A DNA stretch of 15,633 nt from Pseudobacteriovorax sp. (GTDB lineage Bacteria; Bdellovibrionota_B; Oligoflexia; Oligoflexales; Oligoflexaceae): contig JBNKNM010000121.1 of the NCBI GenBank assembly GCA_050293845.1, positions 1 to 15,633 on the forward strand, given 5' to 3'. This document shows, piece by piece, positions 592 to 14,273 of this stretch (within the stretch, counting starts at the first letter, position 1; each line of letters starts with the position of its first letter). The position numbers and the translations under genes were made by a program. The notes beneath the pieces were generated by a model. The model did no database searches and was not told the origin of the DNA. It saw only the letters and a list, made by a program, of their open reading frames with translations.

Positions 592-1296
592 ATGATTAAG
601 CATATTGACAATATTGAAGCCATCGAAAACCTAAATTCGGCCAACTATAGACCCATAAACGAGGATCAAGTAGCAGCCCTAATGGCCTCGATTCGTGAAA
701 TTGGTTTGCAGGAACCCATAAAAGTTTTCGAAATTAAGGACACCAAAGAGCGGTTTATCATTTGCGGCCATCATCGCGCTGAGGCAATAAGGCGATTAAG
801 AGAAGCCAATGCGACGATATTTTATAATCTACCCACGGAGCTAAAACGAGGTACTAGGGAGGAGCTAGAGAGCCAATCAACCATTGTTGGCTCGATAGTA
901 TCCAACATGTTTCGCACGGATATGACAGTTTTCGAACGTGCAGCCGCTTACCAAAAGCTTGTTGATGCTGGCTTAACGGTTCAGGAAATAGCGCGAAGGC
1001 TTACCAAGGATCGCAAGACAGTGACCAACGGCCTTGCTGTAGCCGCTTTACCCTTAGAAGTAAAGGATTGGATCGCAGACAACAAGATCTCGGATTCTAG
1101 GGTCTATTCTGTGGCTAGAGCCTATAAGCGCGACCCTAGTATTGATTGCATTGCTAAGCTGCGAAAGTCTCCGCAAACTAAGAATGGCCTTACAGCAAAA
1201 AGGATGATTCAGGTTGATATTGATCAATTGGTGGAAAAACTTAAGCAAGCCAAGCTTGGTGATTCTACGATCGAAAGGATTATCAACGTGCTTTAA
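592..1296 (+). CDS. ParB/RepB/Spo0J-family protein (ParB N-terminal domain + HTH), 234 aa, no adjacent parA in the window
   Basis: NYR..., L.ASIREIGLQEPIKV (Box I), GHHRAEA (GxxRxxA motif), N..R.DMT.FERA.AY..L, and HTH GLTVQEIARRLTKDRKTVTNGL. RBS GGAGA upstream. Confidence 0.9.
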   Translation: MIKHIDNIEAIENLNSANYRPINEDQVAALMASIREIGLQEPIKVFEIKDTKERFIICGHHRAEAIRRLREANATIFYNLPTELKRGTREELESQSTIVGSIVSNMFRTDMTVFERAAAYQKLVDAGLTVQEIARRLTKDRKTVTNGLAVAALPLEVKDWIADNKISDSRVYSVARAYKRDPSIDCIAKLRKSPQTKNGLTAKRMIQVDIDQLVEKLKQAKLGDSTIERIINVL

Positions 1297-1583: not shown

Positions 1584-1934
1584 CTATTTTACGTATGCAA
1601 ACATTCCATCTGCGCTGGTATCGTTATCAAAGCCGTGTATAGACTTATGATGAAACCTCCAATTTACAAATTTTTCTCCACGTTGAGGAGGGACTATTAA
1701 AAAGTCATTTATTTCAGATTTCAGAATTTTTTCAAGAGCAGCTACTGTAGTATCACCATGTAGAGATACTCTCCCTTCTAAGTTGGGTACCTCGTTGAGA
1801 TCAAAGGTGCAAACTATTTTGCGGTTTGATTGAGCTGTTGTACTTCCGTCCAACTGAACCGCATTTGGATTATTTGGGAACCAGGTATTTTTCAACCATT
1901 CTTGGAATTTTTTGAAACTATTAAAACTATCCAT
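1584..1934 (-). CDS. Hypothetical protein, 116 aa (MDSFNSFKKFQEWLKNTWFP...GMFAYVK)
   Basis: Start moved from the ORF track (2072) to the ATG at 1934, which has an AAGGAG RBS (1941-1946) and avoids overlap with the divergent gene. Globular-looking composition; family not recognised. Confidence 0.7.
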   Translation of the reverse strand: MDSFNSFKKFQEWLKNTWFPNNPNAVQLDGSTTAQSNRKIVCTFDLNEVPNLEGRVSLHGDTTVAALEKILKSEINDFLIVPPQRGEKFVNWRFHHKSIHGFDNDTSADGMFAYVK

Positions 1935-1993
1935 TGATAGCTCCTTCTCAAGTAGGAGTAATACAAACCGATATCGGAACTGGAGGAAGAAAC

Positions 1994-2797
1994 ATGAGAA
2001 TAATCCAATCCGATCAGTTCGATAAAATTTACAAGGAAGCGACTGCGATTTTGCTGTCGCATCTATCATCACCAGTCAACAGTAGCAAGGGTAACAATAT
2101 TGAAATATCAAACATCGGGATAGAATTGGCAGATATAAACTCCTACGAGATTGATTTTGAGCATACCTTCTTGCCTGATCGCCAACAAATCTACAAACGC
2201 TACCTTGAAAAAGAGCTTGATTGGTACTTTGAGAAACGACCGAACGAACTACACTACAAAAAAACACCATCACCAAATGTTTGGAAAAATTATGCTGATG
2301 AGAAAGGGTTTGTCGTTTCTAACTACGGGTATATGATTCTTCGAGAGATGAAACGGTTTGGGCGTAAAAGAGGAAAAGGCAGAAAAGCTACATCATATGA
2401 TTTCTGTGCAGATTTATTGCTCCGGAAACCAAAAACACGACAGGCTATTCTTCACTACAACCTACCAAAGCACTTTAATAAAGACGCTAAGGATATTCCT
2501 TGCACAGTTGCTGGACAGGTTTTTATCCGGGATCTTAAGCTTCATATGACTGTGTTTCAACGATCTAGTGATATCTTCACGGGGCTTCCATATGATGTTC
2601 CATGGCATTGTGAGTTAATGAAATATATGATTCGAGATATCAGGGAACGCGCACCTAAAATCAATACAGATAAGGGTCTCTCGAAAATTGAATCAGGATC
2701 ATTAACACTGTTCATTTCCAGTCTTCATCTGTATGAGGACAACTATGAAGAAGCTCTAAAGATCAGTCAGAATCAGGCTATCAAAATGGTAGCGTAA
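1994..2797 (+). CDS. Thymidylate-synthase-fold protein, dCMP hydroxymethylase-like (T4 gp42 type), 267 aa
   Basis: ATG 1994 with GGAGG RBS (1982-1986). Motifs YLEKELDWY, PNVW...G...SNYG, TRQA, DIPCT (catalytic Cys170), QRSSD, GLPYDVPW (Asp201, 31 residues after the Cys) and SLHLY parallel T4 gp42 as recalled (YIQRELEWY, NSNYG, DFMCT, RSND, GFRNDYAW, SLHVY). Confidence 0.85.
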   Translation: MRIIQSDQFDKIYKEATAILLSHLSSPVNSSKGNNIEISNIGIELADINSYEIDFEHTFLPDRQQIYKRYLEKELDWYFEKRPNELHYKKTPSPNVWKNYADEKGFVVSNYGYMILREMKRFGRKRGKGRKATSYDFCADLLLRKPKTRQAILHYNLPKHFNKDAKDIPCTVAGQVFIRDLKLHMTVFQRSSDIFTGLPYDVPWHCELMKYMIRDIRERAPKINTDKGLSKIESGSLTLFISSLHLYEDNYEEALKISQNQAIKMVA

Positions 2798-2807
2798 GGA
2801 GACAATT

Positions 2808-3218
2808 TTGGAAGTTCCAGTTGTTGCAGCTGTAATCATGAAAGATGATAAAGTTCTACTTGCTCAAAGGAAGCACGAGAAGTTTGATAAATTGTGGGAG
2901 TTTCCAGGTGGAAAAAGAGAACCTGGAGAATCCGATGCGGATTGTTTGATCCGTGAAATTAAGGAAGAACTTGATTTATTGATCATTGTCGACGATATAG
3001 TTACATCGATTAGTTACTCATATAAGGATTTTGATGCAAAGATTAGTTTCTACTTTGCTACGATTTTAGAAGGTAATCTTAAGCTATCGGTTCATTATCA
3101 AGTGGCTTTTGTGCATCCTAAAGATTTGTGTAGATATAAACTTTTGCCTTCTAATATCGGTATTGCCAAAAAGCTAGAGCACTTCTTAATCAACAAAAAG
3201 AATCAGAATCAAGATTGA
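2808..3218 (+). CDS. Nudix hydrolase, MutT/NudG-like (d)NTP pyrophosphohydrolase, 136 aa
   Basis: Complete Nudix box WEFPGGKREPGESDADCLIREIKEEL, plus VVAAVI..D.KVLLAQR and L.VH elements typical of the MutT/NudG subfamily. TTG start with AAGGAG RBS overlapping the upstream stop; 10-nt gap implies an operon. Confidence 0.92.
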   Translation: MEVPVVAAVIMKDDKVLLAQRKHEKFDKLWEFPGGKREPGESDADCLIREIKEELDLLIIVDDIVTSISYSYKDFDAKISFYFATILEGNLKLSVHYQVAFVHPKDLCRYKLLPSNIGIAKKLEHFLINKKNQNQD

Positions 3219-3341
3219 CAAAAATTCTCTTAAAAAGAAAGTTTTAAGGGACGCTTTGAAAAGACCGGTATGAATCAATTTATACACCTTATGGAGGTGA
3301 CTTTCTTTGTTCTAAAAGAAAGCTATAGACCCGAAAAAATT

Positions 3342-4301
3342 TCACTTCAATGTCTTCCCCTTTTCATAGGTTCGCATGTCGATTTTGGGAGACTTTCCTT
3401 TAAATGTCTGCATTTGTAAATACTCTTCGGAATTCCTAATTTCTCCGGGAATATTCTTTAACGAATCTAACAAGCTTTTTACGTTGGGGTGTGGACTCGT
3501 CTCGCTAAACCAAGTCTGCATCATTTTGCCATGTTTTTTTTCTAAGTTTTCCGGTGTCTTTTGAAACTCAAATAGAATTAATGCGCTTGAAGGATCTAGT
3601 CCATTCGTAATCTGATAAATGAATGCTGCTATGTATTTGATGCATTTCTGGGCACGCCCTCTATTCAGCGAGGACCATGAGTCACCAAGTTTTAGAATTT
3701 TACCTCTAGCATCCTCACGATTAGACATTAGGCTATATACATAGGAGTCAGGGTTTTCTGATACAACTGGATCACTTGGAGTTTCATGACCCCCAAATGA
3801 GCATATCCTTGATAGATTCATGATTTCCGTCCGACTAGTATTTTTTCTAAAATAGTATACTGATACTCTCTTGTAGCCCCAATCCCATTGGTCATCTGCA
3901 TCTTGTGGACTACCGTAAACCAATTCAAATATTGAGCTAAGGTGTCCTCTTAGATGTATTCCAACAAACGATAGGTATAGATTAACACGAGCTTTCTCAC
4001 GGTTATATAAGGCCTCATAATTCTCTTGTTTTTTTGCCCGCTTGTTCGCTAAAAGTAAGGAAATAATTATATAAACCATAATTATAATGAATAAAATCCA
4101 AATTGTAGAATAGGCGTTCTCTTCTAATTTTATCCAGAGGAAGCCGGAAACAAAAATTCCAAGATATGCATTTAAGATTTCAGAGTAGACAAAATGAAAG
4201 TTAGCTTGACTATTAAGTTTAAGCCAGATTACGAGGGGGTATATGACTAGTGCGAGAATACATAAAATTAGTGGTATGATTACTTGAATTTCTAAACTCA
4301 T
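3342..4301 (-). CDS. Membrane protein with three N-terminal TM helices and a soluble C-terminal domain (possibly GAF-like), 319 aa
   Basis: Hydrophobic segments at about aa 6-27, 37-57 and 66-85, then a charged helical linker and an alpha/beta domain (KRVSVYYF...IKYIAAFIY...ALILFEF). The GAF-like call is pattern inference only. Confidence 0.75.
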   Translation of the reverse strand: MSLEIQVIIPLILCILALVIYPLVIWLKLNSQANFHFVYSEILNAYLGIFVSGFLWIKLEENAYSTIWILFIIIMVYIIISLLLANKRAKKQENYEALYNREKARVNLYLSFVGIHLRGHLSSIFELVYGSPQDADDQWDWGYKRVSVYYFRKNTSRTEIMNLSRICSFGGHETPSDPVVSENPDSYVYSLMSNREDARGKILKLGDSWSSLNRGRAQKCIKYIAAFIYQITNGLDPSSALILFEFQKTPENLEKKHGKMMQTWFSETSPHPNVKSLLDSLKNIPGEIRNSEEYLQMQTFKGKSPKIDMRTYEKGKTLK

Positions 4302-4726
4302 TTTTAAGCCTGATTTATTCGCACTACCTTAAGGCTATCGGAAGGATAGAGAACACCTTTACATTGTTTTAAATGGATGTTTTGATGATTTTTGAACAAT
4401 ATGTGCATTGTAAGGTAATTCACACATAGGCGCGTTCCATAAAAGGAAGGATTTAAGAAACAACTCAATAATCTTTTTTCCATACGCGGTTTCAATGTTC
4501 TCGCTATCTCTTAAAGCCGTGCCTTAAAGTATAGTACTGTAAACTCCCAAAAGATGGAATAAATGAAACAAACTTATTTGTAGTAACAGTGAAACGTATT
4601 GGATATAATACGGTTAGTCCCATGAGTAGAATTTCGATCTATAAATTAATAACCTAGGGAATAAAATCTATAGAGTAAAGCCAAATCGTCCAGGGCTTGA
4701 TGCTTTGAAATTCATTGAAACAGCCG

Positions 4727-4863
4727 ATGTTGATCAAGCTACTTCGTTTTAGAAGGTTTTCTATGGTAGAAAGGGTTTTGAGGCGTCCCAAAACCCTTTT
4801 GAAATAAAGGATAGCCAATTTTTAGGCAAAACTCCTCCTGAAGCGCAGTAGCTTGATCGATGT
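4727..4863 (+). ncRNA. Candidate structured RNA or MITE-like inverted-repeat element (~137 nt)
   Basis: 4727-4756 pairs with 4834-4863 as a 30-bp helix (23 Watson-Crick, 5 G-U, 2 mismatches on the + strand; perfect 12-bp core GATCAAGCTACT/AGTAGCTTGATC). It encloses a perfect 11-bp hairpin AAAGGGTTTTG-8-CAAAACCCTTT (4770-4799). Confidence 0.5.
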
Positions 4864-5047
4864 GAGAAACAGGTAACAATATGAATAGTAATTATTATAT
4901 TTTTATAAGTATTAAAAATACTAAATAATTCCAAAGTATATTAAACTTTTTCCTAATATATACTTTTTAGTAAGAAAATGGCTATTCGTTAACCCAGTCC
5001 AACTAGATATCCGATCCTTCTTTTGAATTAGAAGAGGATCTATTCTA

Positions 5048-6784
5048 ATGGCCGGACAAAAACGATTCATCAATTTCAAATTATATCTTTTTAAGAGAAA
5101 TATTAATTCAATAGGTGATGTTTTTGATGCTGATTCGGCAGATGTTCAAATTAATGTTGTACAGAACCAAGATATGACTATTAAAGCATTTTTTTTCCAG
5201 GGAGACGAGACACAGCCAAACTGGATAAAAGATTTAGAAATTTTAATAGATACTAGTAATCAAACTATTTCACAGAAATTCTCTAACTCTGGTAAAAAAC
5301 TTGAATCTGCATCAACTTCCTGTGTTTTGTACATCGAATACCGAGGTCGAGTGTATGCCCTAAGTTATGGTCCATCGGGGTGGAGAAAGATTTCGAATGA
5401 AGCAGTCGATGATTTTGGCATAAAGGTAGTCTTGAATTCATTAAGTGTTAATTCAATAAAGAAAATAATTAGCGAAACAAAAGAAGGAAACAGAGTATAC
5501 ATATCAAGAAAAACACAAGATAAGGTGAATATCAGTGATTTAGGGTTTATACCGAGAAAAGAGTTTTTGACAGGTGTCGGTGGTGTACCGAACGATCCAT
5601 CTCTCGCAAAATATATTGAAGGAGTAAAAGGACTGCAAGTAAGGGTTTCAGTTGAAGACTTTGTATTGACCGAATTTATAAAAAAAGTTGAAAAAATCTA
5701 TCTGTGTAAAGACTATTTAAAAAATTTCAGTTTTTATGATGAAGCTATGGAGGCAGTTGATCCAAGTATTGTCGGAAAACTAAATGAAATATTTTTTGAT
5801 AGATTAATTAAAAAACAAGGTAAATTCTATGTGACTAATATTTTTTCTGAAGGAAAACCATCCTCCATCACTATTTTTAATAGTAATGGCGAGAATAAAG
5901 AGTATTTGCCTGATGATTGGTCCTTTGAAGTGGTTTCTGAACTAATCGATGAAAACTTCATTTCAGAGGAAGTGAAATTAGATTACGCAACTGTAGCTTA
6001 CGAAGGTAGTTCACTAACTTTAAAAAAAGTCCCCTTAGAACTTTTCACAACCACCATTGAGTTAGACGATAGAGTATATAGCTTGATAGAAGGTAATTGG
6101 TCAAAGGTTAGGGATGGATTCATTGAAGATCTTGATAGTGAACTAGCAACTTCCTTGAGTTTTGGTGAAGATCTGGAAAATTACGATCCTATATACCATG
6201 TGGATTCCAAAGGAAACCAATCCGAAGGACAATATAATATAGATATGGGAAGCAGAGAAGGCTATAGCTACCTTGACAAAGAGTGTATTGAAGGCGTGGA
6301 AATAGCAGATATTGTATCTAATATTAGAAAACCAAGATTTTATCATGTTAAAAAAGGAACGGGTATTAGCTCAGTTTCTTATGTAACAGCACAAGCGCTC
6401 GATTCAACTCAACTATTCGTTACCTCAGAAAAATATCGCACTCAAATACTGAATGAAATTTCACATGAAATAGAGCCAGCTTTTGAGACGGCTGCTGAAG
6501 ACAAGCAATTTGGTGTAGATCTTGTCCTTATTCGCAAAACTGCTTTTGAAGATTTGTCCGATTTTTCGCTTCCAGCAAAACTTACACTGAGGGACTATAT
6601 TAGAGACATGAGAGATGGACTAAGAGTAACTGACATAAGAATTCAAAGTATACGTCACATGACTGAACTTGAGTCACAAGAAGCGGCTAGGAAAAGGAGT
6701 GAACATGCCGCAGTTGAAGCTGCAAGAGCTAAGCAAATTGCTGATAAAAAGAAAGACGAACGAATAATCCAGAATAAAAGCTAA
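5048..6784 (+). CDS. TIGR04141/DUF6119-like sporadically distributed protein with a putative C-terminal PD-(D/E)xK-type nuclease domain, 578 aa
   Basis: N-terminal .LYLFK, P.WI..L, S.S.VL......R.YALSYG..G, DFG.KV.LNS and C-terminal EG.YN, LD...., E.AD, .HVK, S...Y...Q patterns that I recognise from this family. RBS GAGG upstream. Confidence 0.8.
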   Translation: MAGQKRFINFKLYLFKRNINSIGDVFDADSADVQINVVQNQDMTIKAFFFQGDETQPNWIKDLEILIDTSNQTISQKFSNSGKKLESASTSCVLYIEYRGRVYALSYGPSGWRKISNEAVDDFGIKVVLNSLSVNSIKKIISETKEGNRVYISRKTQDKVNISDLGFIPRKEFLTGVGGVPNDPSLAKYIEGVKGLQVRVSVEDFVLTEFIKKVEKIYLCKDYLKNFSFYDEAMEAVDPSIVGKLNEIFFDRLIKKQGKFYVTNIFSEGKPSSITIFNSNGENKEYLPDDWSFEVVSELIDENFISEEVKLDYATVAYEGSSLTLKKVPLELFTTTIELDDRVYSLIEGNWSKVRDGFIEDLDSELATSLSFGEDLENYDPIYHVDSKGNQSEGQYNIDMGSREGYSYLDKECIEGVEIADIVSNIRKPRFYHVKKGTGISSVSYVTAQALDSTQLFVTSEKYRTQILNEISHEIEPAFETAAEDKQFGVDLVLIRKTAFEDLSDFSLPAKLTLRDYIRDMRDGLRVTDIRIQSIRHMTELESQEAARKRSEHAAVEAARAKQIADKKKDERIIQNKS

Positions 6785-7588: not shown

Positions 7589-7951
7589 TCATTGCCATCT
7601 ATTTCCTGGAAAAAATTGCTCCACACTTAGCCATGACCAATCTAAAGTAATGAATTCGCATGACCATGAGTTGCCTAAACTAAATCCTATAAATGAAGAC
7701 CGATAATCCTTGCTTGAATGATCAGTTCTATAGTCAGTTAAAGCTCTATTAAAAGAAACAGTTCTTAGATCAGCATTACCTCTACTTCTAGATTTTTTTC
7801 TTTCCCTAGTCTTTACTGAAGAGCTTTGAGTGTATTCTAACCTATTTTCGAGGCTTTCTATCTTATTTTCCAGTAGTTCGACTCTATTATCTTCACTCGC
7901 AAATATTGCGGTTGATAAGGATATTGCTAGAAACACATAGATGCTTTTCAT
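7589..7951 (-). CDS. Exported hypothetical protein, 120 aa
   Basis: Sec signal peptide MKSIYVFLAISLSTAIFA, then a short coiled coil RVELLENKIESLENRL; purine-rich RBS. Confidence 0.7.
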   Translation of the reverse strand: MKSIYVFLAISLSTAIFASEDNRVELLENKIESLENRLEYTQSSSVKTRERKKSRSRGNADLRTVSFNRALTDYRTDHSSKDYRSSFIGFSLGNSWSCEFITLDWSWLSVEQFFPGNRWQ

Positions 7952-10428: not shown

Positions 10429-10884
10429 TCATTCCCTATCTGTAAGTCGATCCAAAAAATCCTGGAATGAATTGGTTAAGAGTTCGACGTTATCGAAAGT
10501 CGGTGTTTCTCCTTCTTCTACTCTGTCGTCCTTGTACCAATAATATACCTTCCCGTAGTATTCCTCTTTAACACCAATGCAGATTAAATCTCCAATGCCG
10601 TTGTCACCTATTGGCAAAATTTGCTCAGGCACCTCCTCAAATGTAAAGGCATATACGGTAAGCAGATCATTAGATGTTTGTCCTTTAGTACCGATACCGA
10701 GGAAATGCACGTGAAAATCTAGATTGCTATCACTTTCATGAATGAAACGATTTCTTTTTGGAGTTCCCCCATTATGTTTCAATATAAATTCTGAATAATC
10801 TATTGGAAGAACAATTTTAAGACGCTCATTAACTGTTTCAATTTCTCTTTGAGTTATTTTTTCAAAACTACCTGATATTTCCAC
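10429..10884 (-). CDS. SMI1/KNR4 (SUKH) family immunity protein, 151 aa
   Basis: EI..VNERL.I.LP.DY.EFI...NGG, LPIGDNG.GD.ICI, YGKVYYW, and ..SF.DFL..L motifs. GTG start with AGGAG RBS 12 nt after the toxin stop; no signal peptide. Confidence 0.93.
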   Translation of the reverse strand: MEISGSFEKITQREIETVNERLKIVLPIDYSEFILKHNGGTPKRNRFIHESDSNLDFHVHFLGIGTKGQTSNDLLTVYAFTFEEVPEQILPIGDNGIGDLICIGVKEEYYGKVYYWYKDDRVEEGETPTFDNVELLTNSFQDFLDRLTDRE

Positions 10885-10896
10885 TTTCTGTATCTC

Positions 10897-12888
10897 CTAG
10901 AAGCTGTAAGTGTCTCGCCCTCCAGTATGCCCTATTGCAATATGAAGGTCTTTGGGGACTAGTTGTAGTTTAGTTGAATGCTCAACATGATGCCAAGTGG
11001 CATCATCGGTCATATCCCAATCTCTATATAATTTTTTCATTTTTTTGTTCGCAGCTCTAATATCTGCATTTCTTCCCCCTTTACCTGGTTTTAAAAAGTC
11101 AATGTCTACCTCTACTTTCATCCCCTTATGCTTTATGACATAGGGGTTTAAGTCAGGAAATCCTTGTTTAGAAAAGTTAACCCCGTCAGGAAAATCTTTT
11201 GCCAACTGGGCTAGCTTTTCTTGCCTAATTTGCCGTTTAATTGGGTCTTTTATTCTTTCTATTCTTTGTTTTAGGATCGGATTTTTATTCACATCGAGAC
11301 TATAATTCTTGCCGGCAAAGAGGTAGTTTCTCACTGTCTTTCCATTTACTTTGGGAACTTTCGATGCAGATTCGAGCAATTCACCGGATGTTTCCCCTAG
11401 AGGAGGACAAGCAAAAGCAGTCGGTATAATTAACTCTTTCATCCATCTTATCGGACTACGCCAAATATTCGTTGCAAAGCAAGGTACTCTGCCGAACCAG
11501 TCAGCTAGTGCATCGTCCGATTTTTTTATGGAACCTTTCAGCTTCTTTGCCAGTTTACCTGCTTTACCTACTTTACCAGCAACTTTGCCAACGAACTTAC
11601 CTAACTTAACCATACCTTTAACAGTGCCAGACAATATAGAAGGCATAAAAAAGCCACCAGCTATCATTGCTATTTCTACATCCGAAATGGCTTCTCCTGT
11701 AATGGGGTCTTTACCAGTCCAGATTTTGTAGGCATCCTTTGCTGCGCTTACACCAGGAATAAAGTCTGTTGCCAAATCAACGGCACCAATAGCGAATCCT
11801 AGGAAGAAGTCACCATATGAGTCGTCATCTTCAGCGTATGCACTGTCCGCTACCCCTACTGCAAACTCAGCACTATCGAGCAAAGCATCGCGAAAAGGTC
11901 GATTCTCGGACTGATCCGTAGCTACTAAGGCTCTGGTACTTTCAATTCTCTTCTGTATGTGATGAAGATTATAATATTTTTCCGAGGTTTTTGGAGTTTC
12001 AAATTCGTAATCGGTTTCAAGAGCTAATAGCGCGGCTAATCTTTCTTCAGCCGCAATTTGAGATTCTTCTTCAAGACTGTCCAAATTCGAAGTATTTATT
12101 ACTTCCTCAGTGGAACTGTTGGCTTGCTCTACAGAATTGTCAATAGAGGTTTCAGCACTTTGAGCTTGATTTATGCTAGTATTACTTTGATTTTCTATTA
12201 AATTAAGTTTGCTATTATTCTGTTGTAACAGTAAGTTTCGATTAAATTTCTTATTTTCTAATGTTTCTTGCGAATCAATGATTTTTTTCTCAAGCCTATT
12301 CTTCTCCTTGGTATTTTTTTCAAGCTCTTCTTTTGCATCAGCTTCTTTGGCCTTTGCATTTGCAGCGGCACGTGAAGCGCTGTTTCTTTGCGTTGCAGCT
12401 TGGTTGCGCTGATTAACTGCATCATTGATTCGATTTTCTGCATTTCTTACTTCACTAGACAATGAACTAAGTTGTAATTTTAGGCTTCGCAGTTCAGATT
12501 CTAAGCTTTGTCTTTCTCTTATTCGTTGAGCATAGTCAGAATCTGATTCATGACTACCTTGACCGGGTGCGGCACCAACTCCACCAACACCACCTGTGGA
12601 AGGTCCAGAGAATGACCCTAAACCGGATATTTCTTCAGTACCTTCTGGATCATTACAAGGAACATAACATACATATACTGTGTAGTTTTGTCCATTCGCT
12701 TGATCTCTATAGGAAAATGATTCACCTAGTTCATTCGTGGAAGCTTCTTCAGAAAGTTCAAAATACTGTTGCTCTGAGAAAGGATAGTTTAATCCTTTGA
12801 TTTCTCCAATAACTAGTACATCTGCAAACTCAGAAGCCTTTAACGATAACGAGATTAAAAGACAAAATAATATATAAAATAGCTTCAT
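10897..12888 (-). CDS. Polymorphic toxin: signal peptide, coiled coil, pre-toxin TG (PT-TG) domain and C-terminal WHH-type HNH/EndoVII nuclease, 663 aa
   Basis: ATG 12888 (AGGGGG RBS) gives signal peptide MKLFYILFCLLISLSLKA. PT-TG motif DFIPGVSAAKD.Y...TGKDPITGE. Nuclease motifs GV.F...GFPD, D..AAN, TWHH (WHH at 10987-10995) and LQLVP..LH....HTGG. SUKH gene immediately downstream. Confidence 0.92.
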   Translation of the reverse strand: MKLFYILFCLLISLSLKASEFADVLVIGEIKGLNYPFSEQQYFELSEEASTNELGESFSYRDQANGQNYTVYVCYVPCNDPEGTEEISGLGSFSGPSTGGVGGVGAAPGQGSHESDSDYAQRIRERQSLESELRSLKLQLSSLSSEVRNAENRINDAVNQRNQAATQRNSASRAAANAKAKEADAKEELEKNTKEKNRLEKKIIDSQETLENKKFNRNLLLQQNNSKLNLIENQSNTSINQAQSAETSIDNSVEQANSSTEEVINTSNLDSLEEESQIAAEERLAALLALETDYEFETPKTSEKYYNLHHIQKRIESTRALVATDQSENRPFRDALLDSAEFAVGVADSAYAEDDDSYGDFFLGFAIGAVDLATDFIPGVSAAKDAYKIWTGKDPITGEAISDVEIAMIAGGFFMPSILSGTVKGMVKLGKFVGKVAGKVGKAGKLAKKLKGSIKKSDDALADWFGRVPCFATNIWRSPIRWMKELIIPTAFACPPLGETSGELLESASKVPKVNGKTVRNYLFAGKNYSLDVNKNPILKQRIERIKDPIKRQIRQEKLAQLAKDFPDGVNFSKQGFPDLNPYVIKHKGMKVEVDIDFLKPGKGGRNADIRAANKKMKKLYRDWDMTDDATWHHVEHSTKLQLVPKDLHIAIGHTGGRDTYSF

Positions 12889-12896
12889 TTTTCCCC

Positions 12897-14273
12897 CTAA
12901 CACCCTTCTCTAAACTCAAGAAATTCTGATTCTATCTCCGCGGTAGGTTCAGATGTGTCTTGTATTCGTGTTGCAAGCGATAAGCATTGAGAAGTAACAG
13001 AATCTCCTAGTCTTCTTAATCTACGCACTACGATATTTTGCCATTCTGATAAGTATATTTCTGCTTCCATAAGCATGCCTTCAGCAAGTTCAAAATAAAT
13101 ATCTCGTTGTATTAAAAAATCAGTCATCAAGTTTTTAACTTCAATTTTAAACGAATCGGAAAGATCTAGATTTTCCATTTGCTTTATTAGCAATGAGTGA
13201 AATTTATAAGCATCAATAGTTGATTTATGAGCACTAAAAGGATATATGCTTCCCGCTAAATCTTGCATTTGGTATGCATAAAACTCTGTCTTTGATTTTA
13301 TCTGCGCATAAATATCAGGACTTTTTAAGACTCTATCTACCTCCAGAATAATTTCTACCCCAAATTCAATGTTGACAATATGAAGCTTCAAAGTTGCGTA
13401 GGCTTGCCAAATTCTAACTAAATTAAAAATGATTAGTTCTCGTTGACGTCTCATTTGTTCTATAGCTTTACTGAATCGAGTTGCCTGTTTATAGGTATGT
13501 CTTAATGCTAAATCAAGATATTTGAGTGATTCTAAATCGATCTCATTGTTATTAAATTTCCTTAACGTAGCCAAATTCACTGTTCCAGGGAATACCCTTA
13601 TATATTCTATTAATCTGTCTGTACTGACTAAATAAGAGTTTAAAGCCTGTTGAATGGTTGATTCTTTTGCAAGAAGATGAGCAGTATTCGGAAGCTCTTG
13701 AAATGCATTTGATATACTAGCGACAATGGTATTGTAAGACTGGCGATCAATGATACTATCAAAATCTGGACTTTTATCTTCTACGAAGGAATTAAAATCA
13801 AGCAACCATGTTTGATAGAGACGATTAACCTCTCCATAATTATTCTTTATATCTGTGAAGCTATTTTGGTTGTAAGATACTTTTTCATCTAGATCATTAA
13901 AAGAGATAAGCAGTTCGCCTAAATTTGTAATATTGTATTCTTCTTCTAAAATATCTTGTTCTAGGGAATAGAGTTCTGGTGATAGTTCATTTTTAATCTT
14001 ATCTACAACTTGATTGTTTTGCTCATTCAGTCGATTCTTTGACGCAATAGCTTGACTTTCCTCACTTCTAAGCTGAGATGATTCACTCAAAATGATTGAT
14101 TTTTCTGCATTTATTGAGGACACTTCCGACGAAGCAGAATTTATAAAATTTTGAGCTTCTGATATTTTTAATTTTGCTTCACTTATCGCCGCGGATACAT
14201 CCTCATTATAAGCTAAACACATTTGACAGTTAATTATAAATATACTAAGAATCCCACAAATTATCTGTATCAT
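12897..14273 (-). CDS. Exported, largely alpha-helical coiled-coil protein, 458 aa (putative toxin accessory component)
   Basis: N-terminal hydrophobic signal (...QMCLA); long heptad region at about aa 25-155; C-terminal Cys pair; GAGG RBS; stop is 8 nt before the toxin ATG. Confidence 0.82.
   Translation of the reverse strand: MIQIICGILSIFIINCQMCLAYNEDVSAAISEAKLKISEAQNFINSASSEVSSINAEKSIILSESSQLRSEESQAIASKNRLNEQNNQVVDKIKNELSPELYSLEQDILEEEYNITNLGELLISFNDLDEKVSYNQNSFTDIKNNYGEVNRLYQTWLLDFNSFVEDKSPDFDSIIDRQSYNTIVASISNAFQELPNTAHLLAKESTIQQALNSYLVSTDRLIEYIRVFPGTVNLATLRKFNNNEIDLESLKYLDLALRHTYKQATRFSKAIEQMRRQRELIIFNLVRIWQAYATLKLHIVNIEFGVEIILEVDRVLKSPDIYAQIKSKTEFYAYQMQDLAGSIYPFSAHKSTIDAYKFHSLLIKQMENLDLSDSFKIEVKNLMTDFLIQRDIYFELAEGMLMEAEIYLSEWQNIVVRRLRRLGDSVTSQCLSLATRIQDTSEPTAEIESEFLEFREGC

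Follow-up and report, generated by a model that had tools for sequence, protein, structure and literature searches.

Pre-replicative hydroxymethylation of dCMP is a textbook phage counter-defence, and bacteriophage T4 pairs the dCTPase gp56, which we take to have a fold different from that of the Nudix enzymes, with the dCMP hydroxymethylase gp42. Here we describe a locus of the bacterium Pseudobacteriovorax sp. (Oligoflexia; NCBI GenBank assembly GCA_050293845.1, contig JBNKNM010000121.1), in which a gp42-like gene of the thymidylate synthase (TS) fold, called the TS-like gene in the following, is directly followed by a Nudix gene and faces a small divergent gene. The analysed stretch of DNA, referred to as the window, is this entire contig of 15,633 bp, which belongs to an assembly of 6.68 Mb in 741 contigs with 96.4% completeness. 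We propose, with a probability of about one half, that the two enzymes would act as a pair converting dCTP via dCMP to 5-hydroxymethyl-dCMP (hm-dCMP), and that this pair and the divergent small gene are carried on an accessory mobile island and take part in conflicts with phages or other mobile elements.

The residues that distinguish hydroxymethylases from TS provide the basis for this comparison. As stated in passages of PMC6400193 and PMC5175136, Asp179 of T4 gp42 recognises cytosine and is replaced by Asn in TS, and the hydroxymethylases do not carry the C-terminal tail of TS. Passages of PMC6400193 further propose as a signature of hydroxymethylation an Asp residue (Asp145) three positions before the catalytic Cys148, which is Leu in TS, together with Ser94 and Tyr96, and passages of PMC5175136 name Ser169 and Arg123' as markers of deoxyribose substrates, the counterparts in MilA, an enzyme acting on CMP, being Ala176 and Lys133'. 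MilA and BcmA (PDB 5jnh, 5b6d) are TS-fold cytosine-nucleotide hydroxymethylases occurring outside phages.

The TS-like enzyme

The TS-like gene (1994..2797, plus strand) codes for a protein of 267 amino acids (aa) which matches Pfam family PF00303 (E 1.2e-15), and its assignment as gp42-type and dCMP hydroxymethylase-like is based on this match, on the T4 structure PDB 1b49, on an AlphaFold2 (AF2) model and on a phylogenetic tree. A search of the solved structures with the single sequence retrieved T4 dCMP hydroxymethylase (1b49) as best match with an E value of 7.6e-16, compared to about 1e-8 for ThyA, and a profile of 14 family members separated the T4 enzyme (1.4e-32) even further from the best ThyA (2.4e-14) and from MilA (9.4e-11). 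The AF2 model is of high quality (predicted local distance difference test, pLDDT, 90.2; predicted template modelling score, pTM, 0.90), and Foldseek ranked T4 dCMP hydroxymethylase (1.8e-16), MilA (5.5e-16), and ThyA (about 1e-14) closely behind each other; since these scores are nearly tied, the discrimination among the three enzymes comes from the sequence.

The residues characteristic of gp42 (PDB 1b49, 1b5d, 6a9a) were counted in an alignment of 175 sequences, consisting of 14 first hits, 148 representatives, and 13 references or loci. Cys170 (codon 2501-2503) aligns to T4 Cys148 in the HMMER alignment to 1b49 and is present in all 175 sequences, and Glu74 aligns to T4 Glu60 and is Glu in 173 of them; both residues are also invariant in alignment A1. 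The motif Asp167-Ile-Pro-Cys170 (2492..2503, plus strand) contains, three positions upstream of the catalytic Cys, the Asp residue marking hydroxymethylases (174/175), which is Leu in ThyA. Ser109-Asn-Tyr111 (2318..2326, plus strand) corresponds to the water-positioning pair Ser94/Tyr96 of the T4 enzyme and is again invariant in A1, with Ser109 kept in 172 and Tyr111 in 174 of the 175 sequences. The phosphate/ribose site is represented by Arg190-Ser191-Ser-Asp193 (2561..2572, plus strand), in which Ser191 (174/175) equals T4 Ser169, the deoxyribose type, and is Ala in MilA; further signature residues are Arg149 (T4 Arg123') and His245/Tyr247. Finally, Asp201 (codon 2594-2596, plus strand), located in a GLPYD motif, is equivalent to T4 Asp179 and to Asn177 of E. 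coli ThyA, the position discriminating cytosine from uracil, and is occupied by Asp in 166 sequences, by Asn in seven, and by a gap in two. The initial annotation, which was made from the sequence without database searches, had recognised a TS-fold reading frame with Cys170 and Asp201 at exactly these coordinates, and the Asn177/Asp179 rule of base specificity it relied on is indeed found in passages of PMC6400193 and PMC5175136. The seven Asn-containing proteins (P0009 and six others) are otherwise of the hydroxymethylase type and may be dUMP-directed.

ThyA shares the fold, the PF00303 assignment and the catalytic Cys/Glu/Arg-Ser core with the window enzyme, but differs at the decisive positions: the ThyA of a genome of the same genus (G001; 23% identity) carries Arg, Leu, and Asn at the positions equivalent to Ser109, Asp167, and Asp201, respectively. 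Moreover, only 20 residues follow Tyr247 in the window enzyme compared to about 55 after the equivalent Tyr of the 264-aa G001 ThyA, indicating that the C-terminal tail of TS is missing, as it is in gp42. All six NCBIfam models of thymidylate synthases scored far under their cut-offs (46.9 bits vs 327 for the best, 33.3 vs 108.35 for the smallest gap). An annotation as thyA, against which the initial annotation had already warned, is therefore rejected on the grounds of these scores, of Asp201 and Asp167 in place of Asn and Leu, and of the absent tail. As judged from this set of sequence features, the protein is likely an enzyme of the gp42 type, directed to dCMP, hydroxymethylating and folate-dependent.

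The window enzyme is only about 30% identical to gp42 of phage CC31 and contains a Lys/Arg-rich insertion at residues 117-136 (2342..2401, plus strand), which corresponds to an 11-residue gap in gp42, is specific for the window subclade, and is basic throughout proteins P0001-P0007. AF2 models it as a beta-hairpin with a mean pLDDT of 74 for residues 121-130. Another chemistry on the TS fold is represented by PDB entries 9iqc and 9iqu, which appeared among the Foldseek matches and are described by their titles as phage TS-fold flavin-dependent dCMP hydroxylases. A flavin-dependent hydroxylation was set aside for the window enzyme, as neither entry is among the 60 best profile matches; the literature search found no paper on these two structures.

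The position of MilA among the best structural matches (5.5e-16) would also be consistent with a small-molecule pathway, in which a 5-hydroxymethyl-cytosine nucleotide serves as precursor of an antimetabolite or nucleoside antibiotic, as with MilA and BcmA. A possible parallel is found on two E. coli plasmids (L027 827-4573; L028 4797-9259), where a TS-like gene of 29% identity with Asp at all signature positions forms an operon with genes for an inosine/xanthosine triphosphatase, an amidohydrolase, a formyltransferase, and an MFS transporter, presumably an exporter; a LysR regulator gene is located upstream on one of the two plasmids. This plasmid operon looks like a pathway for a modified pyrimidine. 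For the window enzyme, such a function appears very unlikely, because Ser191 and Arg149 are of the deoxyribose type as opposed to Ala176 and Lys133 in MilA, MilA ranks far below gp42 by sequence, and the gene is not accompanied by adjacent genes for an N-glycosidase (such as the MilB-type glycosidase of the MilA pathway), a methyltransferase, a kinase, or an exporter.

The Nudix gene and its coupling to the TS-like gene

The Nudix gene (2808..3218, plus strand, 136 aa) starts with a TTG codon 10 nucleotides (nt) past the stop codon of the TS-like gene. This TTG is a sensible start because the homologues begin at the same first beta-strand, and it is preceded at a distance of 5 nt by its own Shine-Dalgarno sequence (AGGAGA). 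The TS-like gene itself carries GGAGGA (1981-1986) at a spacing of 7 nt before its ATG at 1994. The short spacing, the separate Shine-Dalgarno sequence, and the absence of a terminator in between indicate co-expression, and the two genes look co-translated in the window. Terminator-like hairpins are found 3' of the Nudix gene (3285-3299, plus strand) and 5' of the unit (1308-1327), both as consensus matches only, with four such sites found in total compared to 2.6 expected. The arrangement is confirmed by a 1478-nt contig from the probable source run, which spans positions 2342-3819 with zero differences.

The protein belongs to Pfam family PF00293 (E 2.4e-16) and contains an intact Nudix box at residues 35-54 (G-x5-E-x7-REIKEE; DNA 2910-2969), suggesting a (d)NTP pyrophosphohydrolase of the MutT/NudG type. 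It falls into the same Nudix subfamily by hidden Markov models as the CTP/dCTP pyrophosphohydrolase NudG of E. coli (PDB 2rrk) and is of similar length, but stays below the equivalog cut-off of the NudG model (NF007834; 86 bits vs 156), with almost the same score for PRK08999 (85.1 bits) and 59 bits for MutT. Its best solved relatives are 3ees, 5x1x (MutT), and 2rrk. Of the "(d)CTP-type Nudix" of the initial annotation, the assignment as Nudix is borne out, whereas the specificity for (d)CTP is a fair guess and no finding. The protein further matches the PADLOC family PDC-S07 (E 5.3e-39, 130.9 bits, profile positions 6-130 of 135), which is the sole solid PADLOC match in the window; PDC-S07 is a single-gene candidate and is not described with a TS-like partner. 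The Nudix family is huge, with 6378 proteins at E<=1e-10 among 7998 scored, and the closest homologue among the best 120 of these 6378 proteins reaches no more than 47% identity.

The divergent 116-aa gene

A gene for a protein of 116 aa (up116; 1584..1934, minus strand) is oriented divergently to the TS-like gene and carries AAGGAG before its ATG. As read from the sequence, the ribosome-binding sites of both genes are located inside the intergenic region of 59 nt (1935..1993), which corresponds to a region of about 43 nt in Fluviispira multicolorata, a member of the same class Oligoflexia according to the kinship label of the collection. The Fluviispira locus (L010) contains an up116 homologue of 50% identity (E 9e-40) at 7605-7946 in the same divergent position, and up116 and the TS-like gene co-occur in the same two of 131 genomes of the phylum and nowhere else among them. 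Within the window subclade, up116 is thus the partner conserved beside the TS-like gene. The protein gave no Pfam match, and relatives were found neither in the atlas (best score 0.77) nor in viral contigs. No inverted repeat was found in the up116 promoter region. We regard the protein as a likely regulator or inhibitor.

The Fluviispira TS-like gene (L010 7983-9323) breaks off after residue 213 and continues as an unrelated stretch of some 230 aa, so that the gene which originally followed it is no longer visible. This extension has no match in Pfam, as is also the case for the small open reading frames (ORFs) at the left end of the window contig; by eye only, it holds an R-x4-H motif and may be HEPN-like.

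Distribution and phylogeny of the family

The TS-like gene is rare. A word-indexed search of 5.8 billion clusters returned only 15 proteins including that of the window, and an exhaustive profile search of 1.84 billion representatives yielded 7964 proteins at E<=1e-3 and 200 at E<=1e-30, of which 18 stand out at E<=2.6e-57 before a drop to 1.5e-48. Within the phylum, two of 131 genomes contain the gene, and it was found in none of the 21 relatives belonging to the same family; scans of viral contigs retrieved only relatives of 25-37% identity. It is, as far as can be judged from this distribution, an accessory and horizontally acquired gene.

A tree of 174 sequences (FastTree, LG+gamma; rooted with G001 ThyA; P0244 was dropped as too short) places the window protein in a clade comprising P0001-P0007 and P0139 (support 0.94-0.98). 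A sister clade contains genes from Berkiella, Francisellaceae, and locus L019, the joint clade of 19 members being supported by a value of 0.992, and a wider family of about 33 members by 0.984. The gp42 reference of phage CC31 and four further representatives join this wider family next (support 0.785), so the phylogeny suggested as a check by the initial annotation indeed puts the family beside gp42. Broader relatives are fused to domains resembling deoxynucleoside monophosphate (dNMP) kinases, dCMP deaminase, or dUTPase, and more distant ones are located in phage nucleotide or hypermodification clusters; together with one member in a phage context (L020, see below), these features indicate that the family is of phage stock. 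Two proteins, P0146 and P0148, carry an N-terminal extension of about 190 aa which is rich in Cys motifs and looks HNH-endonuclease-like by eye, without a Pfam match.

An SRA-fold partner in the sister clade

Three loci of the sister clade carry an ORF of 120 aa directly 3' of the TS-like gene (L011 8631-8990, L012 8740-9099, L019 3591-3950). The same pairing is inferred for four of six further TS-like proteins from contigs of the same size (2403, 4205, 5733, and 1492 bp); the contigs of the remaining two (8913 and 21,470 bp) gave no match to the 120-aa ORF. The collection of 5.8 billion clusters contains 29 such proteins.

The AF2 model of the 120-aa protein (pLDDT 75.5) was compared to 48,161 chains by VIA-align, and the top 15 matches were all SRA-type readers, including SUVH5 (Z 9.7), ScoMcrA (9.4), AspBHI (8.9), and AbaSI (5.5), with the next match at Z 4.8. 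Foldseek likewise gave the SRA domain of ScoMcrA as top match (1.6e-3), and the atlas matches were SRA or DUF6697 proteins. According to the model, the protein is a stand-alone SRA fold, which is the fold of readers of 5-methylcytosine and 5-hydroxymethylcytosine (hmC), and it therefore provides an independent fit with the cytosine C5 chemistry predicted for the TS-like enzyme. As far as the modelled structure can be relied on, the two genes, which adjoin PADLOC candidates, look like a so far undescribed pairing of a writer with a reader of modified cytosine. A tblastn search of the window and its genome found no SRA-like gene, and a profile comparison by hhalign (probability 0.2) revealed no resemblance of up116 to the SRA-like proteins.

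Genomic surroundings

PADLOC candidates immediately flank the TS-like gene or the pair at three of three genome loci, with matches to PDC-S39 (7.5e-100), PDC-S19 (1.1e-22), and PDC-S49 (1e-28); the PDC-S39 gene (DUF7380-DUF4209) is located 3' of the Fluviispira TS-like gene (L010). Integrase genes are found upstream at two of the three loci (L010 and L012).

Hardly any of the window DNA has a counterpart in the family, the exception being a ParB-like gene (592-1296, plus strand), which has a 72% DNA match in one relative. Copies or fragments of this gene are present on four other contigs of the genome, the one on contig C213 being 92% identical over 67 aa, which suggests plasmid-like or integrative elements. 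The remaining neighbours comprise genes for a membrane protein, a DUF6119/TIGR04141 "sporadically distributed" protein (5048-6784, plus strand; E 3.9e-62), for which no relevant literature on DUF6119 was found, a DUF285 protein, and a polymorphic toxin with a PT-TG pre-toxin domain and a C-terminal WHH/colicin-DNase nuclease (10429-12903, minus strand), which forms an interbacterial competition module with the SUKH (SMI1/KNR4) immunity gene just downstream. The impression of the initial annotation that the neighbours look defence-like therefore holds only in part, the Nudix protein with its PDC-S07 match being the one solid case, and the locus is a variable island rather than a clear defence island. 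A multi-copy repeat covers positions 1-350, where the depth is five to eight times that of the remainder and loose ends occur at 195, 231, and 343/344; a segment at 4438-4871 is found again on four further contigs, with a multi-copy repeat near 4764-4797. These multi-copy repeats probably explain the contig boundaries. The sequenced contigs in which they show up, all from one study, confirm the window sequence but reveal nothing outside its two ends.

In line with the initial annotation, the scan of the window ORFs revealed neither a dNMP kinase or polymerase gene nor one for a glycosyltransferase or a virion protein, and genes for a relaxase or for conjugation were likewise not found. The locus of phage CC31, by comparison, contains the usual neighbours of the T-even hmC pathway beside gp42.

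Discussion

In the mechanism we propose, Cys170 would attack C6 of dCMP, Asp201 would recognise and protonate the cytosine, Glu74 would open methylene-tetrahydrofolate, and Asp167 together with Ser109/Tyr111 would place a water molecule, yielding 5-hydroxymethyl-dCMP and no methyl product. The co-translated Nudix enzyme would hydrolyse dCTP to feed dCMP into this reaction and may also re-hydrolyse hm-dCTP, and the pair would thus copy the logic of T4 gp56 and gp42, leading from dCTP via dCMP to hm-dCMP. Because no dNMP kinase accompanies the pair, the flow would end in hm-dCMP unless a kinase of the host or of a phage continues it, and this endpoint would drain or mark the pool of cytosine deoxynucleotides. 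Of this picture, the fold, the residues, the phylogenetic position, the gene order, the rarity, and the contexts are shown by the data, while the substrates, the direction of the Nudix step, the role, and its regulation are inferred.

The similarity to the T4 system thus extends from the residues of the active site to the coupling with an NTP pyrophosphatase potentially able to supply dCMP, even if the pyrophosphatase in the window is a Nudix protein. Moreover, the T-even companions, namely dNMP kinase, glucosyltransferase, and phage replication genes, are absent among the window ORFs, and the genes are located on a chromosomal accessory island of a bacterium. An NTP phosphatase adjoining a TS-like gene recurs on the E. 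coli plasmids described above, and a Nudix protein supplying dCMP or limiting hm-dCTP would mirror both arrangements; we regard the chances that the Nudix enzyme acts as a dCMP feeder as about even.

Nucleotide-depletion defences using dCTP deaminase or dGTPase starve phage replication of a deoxynucleotide. They serve here as a working analogy which does not imply membership, as the chemistry of the window would consist of pyrophosphohydrolysis and C5 hydroxymethylation. A role in conflicts with phages or mobile elements is suggested by the rarity and mobility of the genes, by the defence candidates adjoining the relatives, and by the varying partners, up116 here and the SRA-fold protein in the sister clade. 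Such a role could be a defence in which cytosine nucleotides are diverted or marked, or the self-protection of a mobile element; it is put forward tentatively, with somewhat less confidence than the feeder function of the Nudix enzyme.

A number of observations weigh against the proposed reading. Within the enzyme, the second phosphate-binding Arg contributed by the partner subunit (T4 Arg124) is replaced by Gln150, a substitution shared by 132 of the 175 aligned sequences, among them sequences of phages. The solved relatives of the Nudix protein are mixed, comprising a Bdellovibrio "probable pyrophosphohydrolase", MutT, and NudG, and its specificity is not readable from sequence. The window shows no evident kinase, effector, or sensor gene. 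The PADLOC PDC families are candidates only, and in the source passages PDC-S07 is merely listed as a PADLOC hit and single-gene candidate. The contexts compared are a small sample of four loci and the window within a clade of 19 members, and one family member (L020) has a kinase-like gene on one side and a PolA-like gene on the other, as is ordinary in phages. The operon of TS-like and Nudix genes, which is supported in the window by the 10-nt gap and the Shine-Dalgarno sequence, does not recur, an outcome which the initial annotation itself had named as refuting its reading: no related Nudix gene adjoins the TS-like gene at any of 17 homologous loci (three from 185,579 species genomes, six from viral contigs, and eight from metagenomes). 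At L019, an unrelated Nudix gene is located 1.8 kb upstream on the opposite strand, separated from the TS-like gene by dapB and a NYN gene. The contigs encoding the close homologues P0002-P0006 (53-70% identity) measure 4144, 1806, 5257, 5504, and 11,089 bp, and none of the best 120 of the 6378 Nudix homologues comes from a contig of the same size, which is an indirect observation on short contigs. No Nudix orthologue was found in the 21 family relatives (best relative 39% identical). By the comparison of loci, the Nudix gene is a lineage-specific addition to the TS-like gene.

This raises the alternative that the adjacency is fortuitous, the Nudix protein being a pool sanitiser of the MutT/NudG type or a stand-alone PDC-S07 protein, and the true unit consisting of the TS-like and the 116-aa gene. 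Such a view fits with the presence of up116 at both subclade loci and its lack of any further occurrence in the 131 genomes, with the size of the Nudix family, and with the definition of PDC-S07 as a single-gene candidate in the passages cited. It is opposed by the 10-nt spacing, the separate Shine-Dalgarno sequence and the lack of an intervening terminator, and by the absence of both genes from 21/21 family relatives, which fits joint acquisition; in addition, the only other subclade locus is the truncated one of Fluviispira, where any downstream gene is lost to view. Altogether, we consider a chance neighbourhood quite unlikely.

A further point against a conflict function is that no canonical thyA, thyX, or folA gene was found in the assembly, which leaves room for a metabolic role. 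The TS-like gene is the sole TS-fold gene of the assembly, and 18 of 18 family relatives contain a canonical ThyA (E<=4.3e-68) and none a ThyX. The pair might accordingly replace the missing ThyA, either directly or by way of a modified dCMP, deamination of which would give a nucleotide resembling thymidylate. However, Asp201, Asp167, and the missing C-terminal tail oppose a methylation of dUMP, a thymidine kinase for salvage is present in the assembly, Fluviispira possesses a ThyX besides its truncated TS-like copy, and the TS-like gene is absent from all family relatives. A gap in the assembly is also possible at 96.4% completeness and 741 contigs; the synteny analysis by tblastn with the thyA neighbourhood of G001 did not separate such a gap from a loss of thyA, the flanking gene belonging to a multi-copy family and the thyA-linked gene used being present in only five of 22 genomes. 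Metabolic replacement is thus the explanation we regard as least probable.

More weight may be given to the possibility that the genes are self-protection cargo of a mobile element or a decayed phage, in which hydroxymethylated deoxycytidine in the element's own DNA, once replicated in or transferred from this cell, would evade restriction in the next host. In favour of this view, the family is nearest to T-even gp42, the L020 member and the distant relatives in hypermodification clusters are of phage type, a ParB-like gene is located 0.7 kb upstream and multi-copy repeats at the contig bounds, integrases adjoin L010 and L012, and the SRA-fold partner of the sister clade implies modified cytosine in DNA. 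On the other hand, such cargo would act on all of the dCTP in the host, the relatives on viral contigs are only 25-37% identical, and the window is devoid of dNMP kinase, polymerase, glucosyltransferase, virion, relaxase, and conjugation genes. As an explanation for the locus as a whole, we therefore rate self-protection as unlikely, and retain the conversion of dCTP to hm-dCMP by an accessory conflict module as the preferred reading.

The contexts of the window and of the sister clade may be joined in a scheme which is speculative and, taken as a whole, rather doubtful, namely that the TS-like family provides the writer of a novel type of bacterial module for immunity or conflict, built on hmC nucleotides. 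The hm-dCMP made by the host would be unusable until the promiscuous dNMP kinase or the fast replication of an invader draws it into DNA. The outcome would be sensed by the SRA-fold reader in the sister clade, while the Nudix enzyme and a 116-aa regulator would control the pool in the window, and the result would be either an irreversible drainage of dCTP or a marking of invader DNA for modification-dependent attack.

Descriptions of a bacterial TS-like gene with a Nudix or SRA partner were not found in literature searches. One practical consequence concerns the public label "thymidylate synthase", which would mislead metabolic reconstruction, most of all in this genome without detected thyA or thyX. 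The same chemistry that phages employ as counter-defence is predicted here for accessory islands of bacteria, which lack the kinase and polymerase of the phages and in which the partners change between the Nudix enzyme, the 116-aa protein, and the SRA-fold reader, suggesting that cells or their mobile elements have turned a phage trick to their own use. Should the function be defence, it would bring a new chemistry to immunity acting on nucleotide pools, or a system that writes and reads modified cytosine.

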